Below are positions 56,492 through 64,000 of a stretch of 64,000 nt of DNA, in pieces (position 1 is the stretch's first letter; each line of letters opens with the position of its first letter). Position numbers and translations under genes: made by a program. Location: assembly GCF_048403405.1 (NCBI RefSeq), contig NZ_CP183129.1; one strand, given 5' to 3'. The notes under the pieces were generated by a model. The model was not told the DNA's origin, made no database searches, and worked only from the letters and a program-made list of their open reading frames with translations. This DNA is from Escherichia coli. GTDB lineage: Bacteria; Pseudomonadota; Gammaproteobacteria; Enterobacterales; Enterobacteriaceae.

Positions 56492-57001
56492 TCAAAGCAT
56501 TGTTAACAAGGCGGACGCACCAGCACCAACGAGACTGGCTACCGTACTATTATTTAGTAAATCCTTAAGCAAATTTTTTGCCTGAGGATCTTGTGATTGA
56601 GAAACTTTTTCAACAAGTTCAGTTATGCTGAGATTTACAATAAGATTGTTATGCTCACCGAGTTGAACCTGTGTACCGGATATGTTACCAATGTTAAATG
56701 TATTTTGGCTAGATTGTTTTGGTTTATGTTCATTAGCAGTCAGATTCTCGACTTTTAATGTAAGCATGTGAGGGTGATTAGTACCAACATTGAGTGTACC
56801 TCCTGGTAAAAATGACATATCAATTACTTTTAATATTATTTCCCCCTTCCCTAGTTTTTGAGTGATTTCATCTCCAATATTAATATCTGGTTCTTCAGTA
56901 TAAGGGATTAGCACTTTTTTTTCAGCTGAGTTTCTTTTCCCCTTGTATTCAACTCCTGCGATTGTGAATTTTTCTGGATATGCCATGACGTTAAGATCCA
57001 T
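56492..57001 (-). CDS. hypothetical cargo protein B (shared C-terminal module, hydrophobic C-terminal tail)
   Basis: 169 aa in markedly AT-rich DNA; C-terminus QNTFNIGNISGTQVQLGEHNNLIVNLSITELVEK...AKNLLKDLLNNSTVASLVGAGASALLTML parallels the C-terminus of the upstream gene. Confidence 0.7.
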   Translation of the reverse strand: MDLNVMAYPEKFTIAGVEYKGKRNSAEKKVLIPYTEEPDINIGDEITQKLGKGEIILKVIDMSFLPGGTLNVGTNHPHMLTLKVENLTANEHKPKQSSQNTFNIGNISGTQVQLGEHNNLIVNLSITELVEKVSQSQDPQAKNLLKDLLNNSTVASLVGAGASALLTML

Positions 57002-57030: not shown

Positions 57031-57807
57031 TTAACTAGTAGATTTGAAAGTGTATTTTGTCTGTGTGTTAAGGTTTGATATTAGAGCTTCATAGTTTTCT
57101 TTACTCAGTAAGTTTTTTGAGTAGGCCTTCTTAAGAAGGTTTTTTGAGAGAGTAATAATTTCTTTTTCACCAGTTGATGCAATTTTTGAGAAGAACTCAG
57201 AGAGCTCTTGTATATTAATATTGTTATTTGTACCAAGTTGTACGTATTGGCTATTTACAGTAGCTATGTTGAATATGTTTTGTTTTGGATGCGTTTTTTT
57301 TAGCTTTTCAATTTCAGCATGTTCTATGATTTTTTGAGAGATACTTTCAATATAACCACTAACGTCTTTTTTTTCTGGGAAGGAAAACCCATCACCTCTT
57401 AATATTTTATCTGTTTCGGCCATTTCATAGTAAAGCCTGCGAATCATCACAAGTAATAGTAATTTAGCCTCCTCGATTGACTCCTCTATTGAGAATTGAC
57501 ATTCAATTGCTAACGCGGAGGTCTGCTCTAAAACAATTTCTGAGTTATTTTCAATGTAAGGATTGATAAAACCATTCCAAAAAATTTGAACGGGAGTACC
57601 TTTAAATGCCAAACCTTGATAGCATATTTCTGTTCCATCATATGCAGTAACTTTCATGGGGGGGCCTGCATTGAAAAATCGCCATCTATGAATCAGTTTG
57701 GTTAATCTTTCGTCAATCTCCCGAACTAATTTATAAGTCCTTTTGAACAATGGGGATGGTCGCATCCCAGGAACAGCAAGAATTTCTTTTGTCACTTGAA
57801 TCTCCAT
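57031..57807 (-). CDS. hypothetical cargo protein A (shared C-terminal module)
   Basis: 258 aa uninterrupted ORF in AT-rich DNA (unlikely by chance); 29 bp upstream of protein B on the same strand; C-terminus QNIFNIATVNSQYVQLGTNNNINIQELSEFF...SKNLLKKAY. Confidence 0.7.
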   Translation of the reverse strand: MEIQVTKEILAVPGMRPSPLFKRTYKLVREIDERLTKLIHRWRFFNAGPPMKVTAYDGTEICYQGLAFKGTPVQIFWNGFINPYIENNSEIVLEQTSALAIECQFSIEESIEEAKLLLLVMIRRLYYEMAETDKILRGDGFSFPEKKDVSGYIESISQKIIEHAEIEKLKKTHPKQNIFNIATVNSQYVQLGTNNNINIQELSEFFSKIASTGEKEIITLSKNLLKKAYSKNLLSKENYEALISNLNTQTKYTFKSTS

Positions 57808-61055: not shown

Positions 61056-61350
61056 AGCCAGAATTACACCTGATGAAGTCAGGGCACATCTTCGACTTGA
61101 TGATGATTTATCCGGTGAAGGCGAACTTCTGAAAATGTATACCGATGCGGCGCTGGAAGCCTGCCAGAAGCATATCGGGAAACGTTTTGAAGACGGGCTG
61201 GAATTTACCCCGGCAATGCGTGTTGGTTGCCTGATGTACATCGCTTTCCTGTACGAGAACCGGGAAGCGGTTTCACCAGTGGAGCACTCGGAACTGCCTA
61301 TGGCTATTTCTGCGCTCTGGTCAGTTTATCGTGACGTAGGGGTGTACTGA
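61048..61350 (+). CDS. head-tail connector (gp6-like) protein
   Basis: ORF 60961-61350; start at MSEARITPDEVRAHLRLDDDLSGEGELLKMYTDAALEACQKHIGKRFE... overlapping portal stop; ~100 aa. Confidence 0.7.
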   Translation: MSEARITPDEVRAHLRLDDDLSGEGELLKMYTDAALEACQKHIGKRFEDGLEFTPAMRVGCLMYIAFLYENREAVSPVEHSELPMAISALWSVYRDVGVY

Positions 61351-61790
61351 TGCCGTGGCAACCATTAAGGCGATGCACTGAGCCTGGCTGTAATAAGCGC
61401 GTGAAGTCCGGCAAGTGTGAAGAGCACAGGCGGGCTGCATGGCGTGCAGAGGATGCCAGACGGGGACACCGCCGCGCGCGCGGGTATTCCCGACAGTGGG
61501 ACAAATACCGCGCCCTGTACCTGAGCAAAAACCCGTTATGCGTGCGTTGTCTGGCTAAGGGGATTTATACGCCAGCTCTTGTGGTGGATCACATCATTCC
61601 CATCAATGGCGGCGGTGATGTTCTCTTCTGGCCTGAGTGGAATCACCAGGCATTGTGCCAGACGTGCCACAACCGTAAGACGACACGGGAAGATCCAGCC
61701 ACGAAAGCAAACCGTAAAGCGGGCATGTATCACGAGCAGGAAGAACGGGCGGCACACCGTAACGACTGGATGTATGGCGATGATGACTGA
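61350..61790 (+). CDS. HNH endonuclease (terminase-associated)
   Basis: 146 aa; Cys-rich with HNH core (VVDHIIPINGGGD...NHQALCQTCHNRKT); sits immediately upstream of terS as in cos-packaging HK97-like phages. Confidence 0.85.
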   Translation: MPWQPLRRCTEPGCNKRVKSGKCEEHRRAAWRAEDARRGHRRARGYSRQWDKYRALYLSKNPLCVRCLAKGIYTPALVVDHIIPINGGGDVLFWPEWNHQALCQTCHNRKTTREDPATKANRKAGMYHEQEERAAHRNDWMYGDDD

Positions 61791-62078
61791 ACAGGAGCAA
61801 ACCAGGCTGATACGTGGACTGATAAGGCAGCGTGACACATGGAAGACACAGGAGACAGAGCACAAAGCCAACAGGACAGGGCGCACAAAACTCACCACAG
61901 CGAAGCGATTAACCGACCGTGACCGCGAGGTCATGGAATGTTTTCGCAATCGCTGGTGAGGCCGTCAGAGGGGGTGGGGGTGGTTTTCAGGACGAAACCG
62001 TCCCTGCCGGACACCGACCGCCCCCTCAAATTTTTGTGCACGGTAATTTTTTTGAAAATAATTGGGCGAAAAAAGAAC

Positions 62079-62435
62079 ATGGCAAGACCACCAAAAGCCC
62101 CCGCTTACCTGGATGAAATCGCGGTCAGGCAGTGGAAGGAAAAATCGCGCCAGCTTTCCGGGCGGGAAGACCTTACCCCCGCCGACTGGAGCAATCTGGA
62201 ACTGTATTGTGTTAACTACTCCATATACCGCAAAGCCGTCGAAGACCTTGCGACGCGCGGGTTCAGCATTGTTAACAGTCAGGGCAGCGAGAGCAGAAAC
62301 CCCGCACTGAGCGCAAAGGCTGACGCAGAAAGAATAATGATCAAAATGGCTTCTTTGCTGGGTTTTGACCCGGTAAGCCGTCGCAGAAATCCACCGGAAA
62401 CAGAGGAAGAGGACGAACTTGACCGCCTGGCATGA
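62079..62435 (+). CDS. terS: terminase small subunit (P27-like)
   Basis: ORF 61938-62435; start at MARPPKAPAYLDEIAVRQWKEKSRQLSGREDLTPADWSNLELYCVNYSIYRKAVEDL... Confidence 0.8.
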   Translation: MARPPKAPAYLDEIAVRQWKEKSRQLSGREDLTPADWSNLELYCVNYSIYRKAVEDLATRGFSIVNSQGSESRNPALSAKADAERIMIKMASLLGFDPVSRRRNPPETEEEDELDRLA

Positions 62436-64000
62436 GTACGCAGAAGGCGTAAAAAACGGCAAAATTACGGCCTGTAAACGACTGAAACAGGCCGTTAAAC
62501 GGTATTTTTCTGACCTTGAAAACTCCCTTTACACGTTCGATCCGGAGGTCGTGGAGCGGTTTATTGCCTTTTCCCGGGTGTGTCCGCACGTAAAAGGCGC
62601 AATGCGCGGTAGTCCCATTGAACTGGAGCCGTGGCAGCAGTTCGCCTTTGCCTGCATCCTGGGCTTTAAGGTTAAGGCCACCGGACGGCGCAAATACACC
62701 AGCGCATTCATTGAAGTACCGCGAAAAAATGCCAAATCCACGGTCGCCGCTATCCTGGCTAACTGGTTTCTGGTTATGGAAAACGGGCAGCAGGATATTT
62801 ACACCGCCGCCGTGAGTCGTGATCAGGCGCGGATCGTGTTTGATGATGCGCGTCAGATGTGCCTTTTATCCCGACCGTTACGAAAGCGGGTAAATATTCA
62901 GGCACACAAGGTGATACACCCGAAAACTAACAGCCTGTTAAAGCCACTGGCAGCAAAAGCGGCAACCATTGAAGGTACAAATCCGAGTCTTGCCATTGTG
63001 GATGAATATCACCTGCACCCTGACAACGGGGTTTATTCCGCACTTGAGCTGGGGATGGGGGCGCGTCCGGAGGGGCTGTTATTTGCCATCACCACATCGG
63101 GGAGCAACGTTGTTTCAGCCTGTAAACAACACTATGACTATTGCTGTCAGATACTGGATGGTGAAGAGATGAACGAATCCATGTTCGTTCTGATTTACGA
63201 GCTGGATGATGAAAGCGAGGTTGACGATCCGGCCATGTGGATAAAGGCGAATCCAAATATCGATGTTTCCGTCGATCGTGAAAAACTGGCCTCAACCATC
63301 CAGAAAGCGCGGGGTATTCCGTCGCAGTGGGTGGAAATGCTCACCAAGCGATTCAATATCTGGTGTCAGGGGGCTACGCCGTGGATGGGTAACGGTGCAT
63401 GGGCGGAGTGCGCCGGAACGTTCGCGGAGGCGGATTTATACGGGCAGGAGTGCTACGCGGGACTGGACTTATCATCAACCAGCGATATTTCCAGCGTGTG
63501 CTATGCCTTTCCGGTCGGTAAAAAGATTATGCTGGTTTCCCGTCACTATCTGCCGGAATTTCAGCTACAGAACCCCGCCAATAAAAACCGCGCCATCTAT
63601 CGCCAGTGGGTAAAGGCGGGCTGGATACGCACAACACCGGGTGACTGCATTGATTATGACCGTATCCGTGATGACATCATGGCGGATGCAGAGAATTTCA
63701 ATATCAGGCTGGTGGGCTTCGATACATGGAACGCCACGCACCTGAGGACGCAGCTACAGGGGGCAGGATTTGAGGTGGAGCCGTTCCCGCAAACATACCT
63801 TCGTTTCAGTCCGGCGGCGAAATCGTTCGAAGTTTTTGTTAACCGGAAGGTGATTGTGCATCGTGGTGATCCGGTGCTGGCCTGGTCAATGAGTAATGTT
63901 GTGATGCAGAGTGACGCGAACGCCAATATCAAGCCGAACAAGAAAAAATCATCCAACAAGATAGACCCGAGCGTTGCGGCGCTGATGGCGTTTGGCACAT
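62419..64000 (+). CDS. terL: terminase large subunit (partial; runs off window end)
   Basis: Open frame from a TTG at 62419 to the window end with no stop (hence absent from the ORF track); hand translation TAWHEYAEGVKNGKITACKRLKQAVKRYFSDL...AILANWFLVMENGQQDIYTAAVSRDQAR...LAIVDEYHLHPDNG shows terminase ATPase features. Confidence 0.75.
   Translation, partial: MTAWHEYAEGVKNGKITACKRLKQAVKRYFSDLENSLYTFDPEVVERFIAFSRVCPHVKGAMRGSPIELEPWQQFAFACILGFKVKATGRRKYTSAFIEVPRKNAKSTVAAILANWFLVMENGQQDIYTAAVSRDQARIVFDDARQMCLLSRPLRKRVNIQAHKVIHPKTNSLLKPLAAKAATIEGTNPSLAIVDEYHLHPDNGVYSALELGMGARPEGLLFAITTSGSNVVSACKQHYDYCCQILDGEEMNESMFVLIYELDDESEVDDPAMWIKANPNIDVSVDREKLASTIQKARGIPSQWVEMLTKRFNIWCQGATPWMGNGAWAECAGTFAEADLYGQECYAGLDLSSTSDISSVCYAFPVGKKIMLVSRHYLPEFQLQNPANKNRAIYRQWVKAGWIRTTPGDCIDYDRIRDDIMADAENFNIRLVGFDTWNATHLRTQLQGAGFEVEPFPQTYLRFSPAAKSFEVFVNRKVIVHRGDPVLAWSMSNVVMQSDANANIKPNKKKSSNKIDPSVAALMAFGT

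Follow-up and report, generated by a model that had tools for sequence, protein, structure and literature searches.

The cohesive-end (cos) site of phage lambda is made up of cosQ, cosN and cosB, that is, an upstream element, the nicking site and the binding site of the small terminase, the last of which adjoins the small-terminase gene. In this study we examined the gap between an HNH endonuclease gene and terS, the gene for a small terminase (TerS) of the P27 family, in a stretch of 64,000 nucleotides (nt) of Escherichia coli DNA from contig NZ_CP183129.1, which we refer to as the window. Judging from its gene content, the region from ~50056 to beyond the end of the window at 64000 is a capsid-forming phage-inducible chromosomal island (cf-PICI) inserted between yhdJ and fis. 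An initial annotation, made from the letters of the sequence, had proposed that the packaging signal of this satellite lies in the ~290 bp between the two genes. The gap, which measures 288 nt, contains all of the features described there. The 119 nt of it that are non-coding (61960-62078, after a small open reading frame (ORF) and before terS) are, very probably, the cos site of the satellite, of the type found in HK97 and phiE125. Placement of the signal in the gap is supported by similarity to phage genome-end junctions, by spacing, by conservation of the non-coding bases and by the record ends of a sister cf-PICI.

The most closely comparable sites have been described in two groups of phages. 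The cohesive ends of HK97 are 10-nt 3' overhangs; its TerS binds a 15-bp site (CTAACCCGATTTTTT, +15 to +29), reading a G beside an A-tract, and its HNH protein gp74 stimulates cos cleavage (PMC11331095, PMC9410871). In phi644-2, a 10-nt 3' overhang, 5'-CGCCCGCTTC-3', has been reported, and the same sequence serves as cos in phiE125 (PMC2920897).

Concerning satellites, HNH-dependent cos packaging is reported for the Staphylococcus aureus phages phiSLT and phi12 and the satellite SaPIbov5 (Quiles-Puchalt et al. 2014). SaPIbov5 resembles the island of the window in being packaged via a cos that needs HNH, TerS and the large terminase (TerL), and differs from it in using the cos and terminase of its helper; a cf-PICI encodes both terminase and HNH itself and has a distinct type of cos. 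The published gene order of proteobacterial cf-PICIs matches the one found here; these elements package themselves by means of their own HNH, TerS and TerL, and they move between species, often in near-identical form. EcCIEDL933 and KpCIDSM30104 (Alqurainy et al. 2022 preprint; He et al. 2025 preprint) belong to the same family as the island studied here and share its gene order. Both rely on their own HNH, TerS and TerL for packaging and have cohesive DNA ends, through which the particle DNA of KpCIDSM30104 is reported to re-anneal. The O157-type cf-PICI is ~84% identical to the window over the gap stretch. As cf-PICIs use their own capsids and terminase together with the tails of a helper, exclusive packaging must rest on a private cos. 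In the available portions of the two preprints, this cos is neither located nor dissected. Relative to these texts, its location and the division into parts proposed below are new; the type of site was already known, and a cos is an expected feature of such an island.

Comparison with phage genome-end junctions

A profile was built from the cf-PICI gap and compared, using nhmmer with the database size set to 0.13 Mb, with the junction sequences of phages. In phi644-2, the sole match spanned the genome-end junction with an E value of 3.7e-6, the best obtained with the profile. The sole match in HK97 also spanned the genome-end junction (E 0.024), and that in ST64B spanned the junction of the record (E 5.9e-4), which is circular and whose ends are unmapped. 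The three junctions have a common layout. A G-run is followed after ~40 nt by a C-rich tract that ends at the cut, and beyond the cut come CAAATTTT-like bases, a core containing CG, an A/T tract and terS. In both HK97 and phi644-2, 42 nt separate the end of the G-run from the right end, and 49 nt separate the left end from the ATG of terS. Applied to the window, the two spacings place the cut at 62022 and 62030, respectively. Positions 62015-62030 align with the right-end overhang of phi644-2 (CGCCCGCTTC) and with the right end of HK97 (CGCCGCCAAA). The locus agrees with the HK97/phiE125 type in its position between the HNH gene and terS, in its junction-like sequence and spacing, and in the proteins encoded around it; the terL product is 28% identical to gp2 of HK97 (E 6e-48) and the HNH protein 36% identical to gp74 (E 6e-17). 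We propose that the site consists of the following parts, given in window coordinates.

61968-61993: upstream conserved element, the G-run GAGGGGGTGGGGGTGG followed by TTTTCAGGAC; unique in the window and kept in cf-PICIs of many genera
61994-62014: variable spacer, of lineage-specific sequence and similar length
62015-62030: predicted cleavage site (cosN equivalent), CGACCGCCCCCTCAAA; aligns with the right ends of phi644-2 and HK97
62036-62061: predicted TerS-binding site (cosB equivalent), GTGCACGGTAATTTTTTTGAAAATAA; majority-base fractions of 0.87-0.885 (see below)

Cleavage probably takes place in the C-rich tract, which would then form the overhang, beyond being a mere part of the signal. 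The top-strand cut is predicted to fall within 62022-62030, with a ~10-nt 3' overhang within ~62015-62030; the profile alignment with phi644-2 puts it after 62024, just before CTCAAATTTT. The predicted TerS site parallels the minimal TerS site of HK97 in position and in its composition of a G plus a T7 tract. The G-run sits four helical turns upstream of the C-tract, and for the element that begins with it a cosQ-like or termination-side role is proposed speculatively, by analogy. The exact cut, the length and polarity of the overhang, the TerS site and any role of the G-run are inferred.

Likeness and difference can be followed system by system. In phiE125, phi1026b and phi644-2, cos likewise has a terminal HNH gene on one side and, on the other, a P27-family terS, whose product is 34% identical to the TerS of the window. 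The G-run lies 42 nt before the cut, the cohesive end CGCCCGCTTC aligns with CGACCGCCCC/CCGCCCCCTC of the window, and CAAATTTT, ACGC-CG and an A/T tract then follow. On the other hand, the site belongs to a siphovirus of full size (48.7 kb) and usual gene order, with cos at the ends of the genome and HNH in the last position. Its G-run and terS are 7 nt closer together, its A/T block reads GAAAAATGAAATTTAA where the window has T7-GAAAATAA, and there is no small ORF between HNH and cos.

HK97 has the same order of elements (HNH, G-run, 42 nt, C-rich end, cut, G plus T7 tract, terS) and homologous TerL and HNH proteins, and the G beside the A-tract in its TerS site has a counterpart in CGGTAATTTTTTT of the window. 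It differs in the small terminase, as gp1 has 161 aa against the 118 aa of the TerS of the window and shows no detectable sequence similarity to it, in the weakness of the DNA match, and in the ~320 nt that lie between HNH and cos, where a homologue of PHROG 3173, the family of the small ORF, was not noticed. The site sequences also differ from those of the window, and mutually exclusive packaging of the satellite and an HK97-like helper would require such a difference. With lambda the locus shares the tripartite logic, an analogy only, in which the G-run would take a putative cosQ-like role; unlike the locus, lambda has 12-nt 5' overhangs, a terminase of an unrelated family and IHF sites, and no HNH protein is involved.

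Conservation upstream of terS

A single copy of the motif GGGGTGGGGGNNNTTTTCAGGAC is found in the window, where 0 would be expected, and the motif is present in at least 120 IMG/VR contigs, which gave 85 distinct versions of the gap. In order to avoid selection of loci by the motif, a second set was anchored on the TerS protein, with one genome per species. This set drew on Klebsiella, Pectobacterium, Citrobacter, Aeromonas, Xenorhabdus, Photorhabdus, Proteus and Erwinia, as well as Serratia, Yersinia, Hafnia, Gilliamella, several Pasteurellaceae and others. The same architecture was found upstream of terS in 78 of the 80 loci, at TerS identities of 66-85%. The majority-base fractions in the 78 unique TerS-anchored loci, in window coordinates, were as follows.

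G-run: 0.79
TTTTCAGGAC: 0.75
Spacer 61994-62014: 0.71
C-run 62015-62027: 0.84
AAATTTTT: 0.93
GTGCACGGTA: 0.87
ATTTTTTTGAAAATAA (T7-GAAAATAA): 0.885
Last 17 nt before the terS ATG: 0.66, the least conserved part of the gap
terS codon positions 1, 2 and 3: 0.84, 0.88 and 0.62

In loci from Enterobacterales, Pasteurellales, Orbales and Aeromonas, the non-coding stretch 62015-62061 is under constraint equal to that on codon positions 1-2 of terS. Conservation of this degree far exceeds what chance would give.

The G-rich and C-rich tracts

The initial annotation had pointed to complementary G-rich and C-rich tracts in the gap. Both are present, the former (aGAGGGGGTGGGGGTGG) at 61967-61984 and the latter (GACCGCCCCCTCAAA) at 62016-62030, and they do contain arms, GAGGGGGTGG (61968-61977) and CCGCCCCCTC (62018-62027), that lie 40 nt apart and are 90% complementary. 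What found no support is a functional pairing of the arms. The inverted repeat is one of 12 comparable pairs in 451 nt and is unremarkable alone. The gap folds only moderately better than shuffled sequences; the RNA fold of the stretch has an energy of -42.9 kcal/mol (z -2.65, 1 of 200 shuffles being equally good) and the DNA fold a z of -1.96 (10 of 200). RNAalifold gave no consensus structure across the relatives of the gap. Covariation was absent in 31 diverse sequences, in which the stem was paired in 69.9% of cells, compared with 68.9±0.7% after shuffling (the observed level was reached by 41 of 500 shuffles), and in which 3 compensatory pairs were counted in the stem against 3.0 expected. 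Within 61600-62200, no covariance model of Rfam 15 matched at E <= 1. As the complementarity shows no covariation, a functional hairpin is unsupported, and a conserved hairpin of the two tracts was rejected as a candidate. The two tracts are most readily understood as DNA elements, each conserved separately.

These results bear directly on the alternative that survives best, namely that the tracts form an RNA hairpin acting, between the head/HNH genes and terS-terL, as an intrinsic terminator or attenuator that lowers terminase expression, so that the conserved stretch would be regulatory instead of, or besides, serving in packaging. The RNA fold given above indeed pairs GAGGGGGTGG with CCGCCCCCTC, the stem and a subsequent T5 run are only 3 nt apart, and single-sequence folds of the relatives usually pair both tracts. 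However, neither a consensus nor covariation accompanies these folds, the stem encloses ~40 nt, and AAA (or TCCTTCAA in Xenorhabdus) intervenes between stem and T-run. A scan for terminators did not report the hairpin, which does not qualify as a Rho-independent terminator. Moreover, termination would leave unexplained both the sequence conservation of ACGCACGG-T7-GAAAATAA and the homology to phage genome-end junctions. We consider a terminator improbable.

Two variations of the tracts were noticed among the relatives. The predicted overhang tract, 62018-62027, is polymorphic among E. coli islands through C/T transitions (CCGCCCCCTC, CCGCCTCCTC, CCGCCTCCCC and CTGCCCCCTC); lineages that circulate together would therefore have cohesive ends with differences of 1-2 nt. 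In Xenorhabdus hominickii (NZ_NJAI01000005), the G-run upstream of terS is expanded to five tandem GGGGTA units, an arrangement that could be prone to slippage and could conceivably form a G-quadruplex.

Virion-derived records that end in the gap

The record vB_KppS-Ant (LR881103.1) is linear and was obtained from particles propagated on Klebsiella pneumoniae DSM 30104. As it is >99% identical to a region of the genome of this host, it is the cf-PICI of the host strain (K. pneumoniae DSM 30104 / ATCC 13883), that is, KpCIDSM30104. Its linear ends fall in the gap between HNH and terS. Comparison with the ATCC 13883 chromosome (NZ_KN046818 3121347-3126697), to which it is 100% identical for 2 kb to either side of its ends, revealed that exactly 69 nt are missing, GAACACGAGGGCGCCAGGCACCAC-CCGCCCCCTC-AAATTTTTTCGCACGGTGATTTTTTTGAAAATAAA. 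These begin directly after TTTTCAGGAC, leave 22 nt in front of terS and have CCGCCCCCTC close to their centre. By our own arithmetic, the chance that a random break falls in the gap is ~0.7% (119 nt of ~16.6 kb). A loss of a few tens of bases from each physical end is, we infer, common in short-read assemblies of linear molecules. In the literature, vB_KppS-Ant has been published as a filamentous single-stranded DNA phage representing a novel genus, and the title of its record reads 'Escherichia phage'.

Two further sequences agree with this, though as weaker evidence. PQ569648.1 (Klebsiella phage P12620-1), a particle-derived 'complete genome' of 106.5 kb, ends with a cf-PICI segment of ~15.9 kb. 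The segment begins with codon 2 of terS, at ~90.64 kb, and both it and the record close with the end of the small ORF. Because the remaining sequence is unrelated, the record has the look of a chimera, and its boundaries give weak support only. The metagenome contig IMGVR_UViG_3300022664_000095 (15,518 bp, the size of a cf-PICI) ends 21 nt past the G-run motif and ~10 nt before the C-tract. Other IMG/VR contigs that seemed to end in the gap were set aside; most of these ends were storage-chunk boundaries or the ends of draft contigs, and this contig alone truly ends there.

According to a second alternative, packaging is by the headful (pac) mechanism or starts from a cos elsewhere, and the gap serves terS merely as promoter and as region of translation initiation. 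A regulatory role is possible for sequence that is conserved immediately before a gene, and several small terminases are generally known to bind pac in or near their own genes. Against this stand the ends of the virion-derived vB_KppS-Ant record in the gap, the re-annealing of cf-PICI particle DNA through cohesive ends, and the combination of terL, HNH and P27-family terS, which is that of cos phages with 3' overhangs. In addition, no sigma-70-like promoter was found on the plus strand of the gap, and the 17 nt before the ATG are the least conserved (0.66). A terS promoter in the gap was also rejected as a candidate in its own right, the sole match of the promoter scan lying on the minus strand. 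We regard headful packaging or a cos elsewhere as very improbable. Least credible of all is the explanation that the gap is functionless and conserved through mere inheritance among recently spread, near-identical islands; cf-PICIs do spread between species, often near-identical, and 136 of the 490 E. coli genomes that carry the stretch are at least 95% identical here, but the TerS-anchored set spans 66-85% TerS identity and several bacterial orders, and the conserved block matches codon positions 1-2, far above third positions and flanking non-coding bases.

TerS and the points that weigh against a cos site

An association was found between the DNA that follows the T-tract and a hairpin of TerS. 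GAAAATA was accompanied by the hairpin SI(V/I)NSQGxESRN in 155 of 155 classifiable loci, and xAGCAGxA by the hairpin xVEGxRGAxTxN in 12 of 12; the alternative to GAAAATAA that is matched with the latter hairpin is CACAGCAGTAAG. The regions involved are terS residues 62-75 (62262-62303) and DNA 62054-62061, the rest of the TerS consensus being nearly the same in both groups. As a hint for the position of the TerS site the association is suggestive only, because the patch is just ~200 nt from the site, so that linkage alone could produce it, and because the patch is a beta-hairpin (residues 63-73), whereas in HK97 bases are read by the N- and C-terminal helices.

These two points also weigh against the assignment of the gap as a cos site of the HK97/phiE125 type, and others join them. 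TerS has no sequence similarity to HK97 gp1 and no sequence match in the PDB, and its Foldseek match (E 0.39) is not significant; the link to gp1 appears at the level of the fold only, where the structural type agrees. The profile match to HK97 is weak and the ST64B record is circular with unmapped ends. The estimates of the cut position disagree by up to 8 nt. The ends of the vB_KppS-Ant and PQ569648 records could be artefacts of assembly or editing. The support for the cos assignment thus consists of independent computational results.

The small ORF

The initial annotation had noted a possible ORF of 59-61 aa that overlaps the HNH stop codon. The ORF proved to be a real conserved gene.

61774-61959, plus strand: gene for a small basic protein of 61 aa (WP_001251187.1 in the Prokaryotic Genome Annotation Pipeline (PGAP) annotation of the identical E. 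coli island); overlaps the HNH stop

Its product matches PHROG 3173 (E 4.8e-26). The ORF is full-length in 118 of 123 loci, although the lineages differ at over half of the residues, with a median pairwise ratio of nonsynonymous to synonymous substitution rates (dN/dS) of 0.30 and 99% of pairs below 1. These patterns indicate a gene under purifying selection, probably a member of the packaging operon. Translation probably starts at a conserved ATG at 61783; as this lies 5 nt upstream of the stop codon of HNH, translational coupling is suggested. An AlphaFold2 model consists of a long helix and a short helix (pLDDT 76.7). No match was found in Pfam, nor in the PDB by sequence or in BFVD by fold, where the best E values were 0.29 and 4.4, respectively. 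The homologues are all named 'hypothetical' and come nearly all from Escherichia coli, and a tblastn search of 50,697 phage records gave one weak match. The cf-PICIs of Pasteurella (Pmp8) lack the ORF yet keep the cos block, so the ORF is not essential to the site.

In the available text on EcCIEDL933, mutation of 'hypothetical gene 1792' of the packaging module severely reduces transfer. If gene 1792, for which that text gives no coordinates, is the small ORF, a phenotype would already exist. One could imagine that the two-helix protein is an accessory factor of HNH-dependent terminases, for example a cos-binding specificity subunit or one that bridges TerS and HNH, that it helps to keep the packaging of satellite and helper exclusive, and that the conserved G-run is its target or a cosQ-like signal. 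We regard this idea as doubtful.

The island and its distribution

The genes that flank the gap are the following.

61350-61790, plus strand: HNH endonuclease gene (PF01844, E 8.7e-10; PHROG 144, E 5e-45), with its stop codon at 61788-61790
62079-62435, plus strand: terS, P27-family small terminase
62425 to past the end of the window (64000), plus strand: terL, large terminase, so named in the identical island of E. coli 4621

The identical island in E. coli 4621 measures ~14.3 kb from int to the gene after terL and is likewise located between yhdJ and fis. Its first part contains genes for an integrase, regulators, a primase, two hypothetical proteins on the opposite strand and the capsid. 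These are followed by an HK97-family protease, portal, connector, HNH, a hypothetical protein, P27-family terS, terL and one more hypothetical gene; tail or lysis genes are not annotated in this island. Judged on the E. coli 4621 island, the element lies within the 10-18 kb of cf-PICIs, has integrase, regulation and replication modules, and shows the packaging order capsid, protease, portal, connector(s), hnh, terS, terL. The two minus-strand ORFs between the primase and capsid genes, at 56492-57001 (169 aa) and 57031-57807 (258 aa) in the window, occupy the position where PICIs carry accessory cargo; neither had a Pfam or PADLOC match at E <= 0.01.

Among 5,426 complete E. coli genomes, 490 contain the stretch 61700-62150, chromosomal in all of them, and it is across this stretch that 136 are at least 95% identical to the window. 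In Xenorhabdus, one genome can contain 4-6 separate loci with terS and a predicted cos of this type, examples being X. miraniensis, X. innexi, X. kozodoii, X. mauleonii and X. khoisanae.

Discussion

With the cos site placed in the gap, packaging of the island may be pictured as follows. After induction and replication, TerS would bind just before terS, at 62036-62061, where the G, the T7 tract and GAAAATAA are located. TerL, with the help of HNH, would then nick the C-rich tract (~62015-62030) in a staggered fashion, producing ~10-nt 3' cohesive ends. Packaging would run rightwards from terS and terL around the element to the next cos, where the G-run, ~42 bp ahead of the cut, may act on the termination side. 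Given the proposed cut and direction, the linear packaged genome would start just before terS and end after HNH and the small ORF.

The site is hereby narrowed to ~60 bp. Together with the predictions for the cut and for TerS binding and with the conserved upstream G-run, this defines a minimal fragment and a set of mutations for transduction tests. A located cos can also be used for cf-PICI-based delivery vectors and for spotting the ends of packaged satellites in virome data. The current picture of how such cos sites work is unchanged. What our comparison suggests is that one cos architecture, consisting of a G-run, 42 nt, a C-rich 3' overhang and an A/T-tract TerS site, is common to HK97, the phiE125 group and the satellites of several orders of Gammaproteobacteria.

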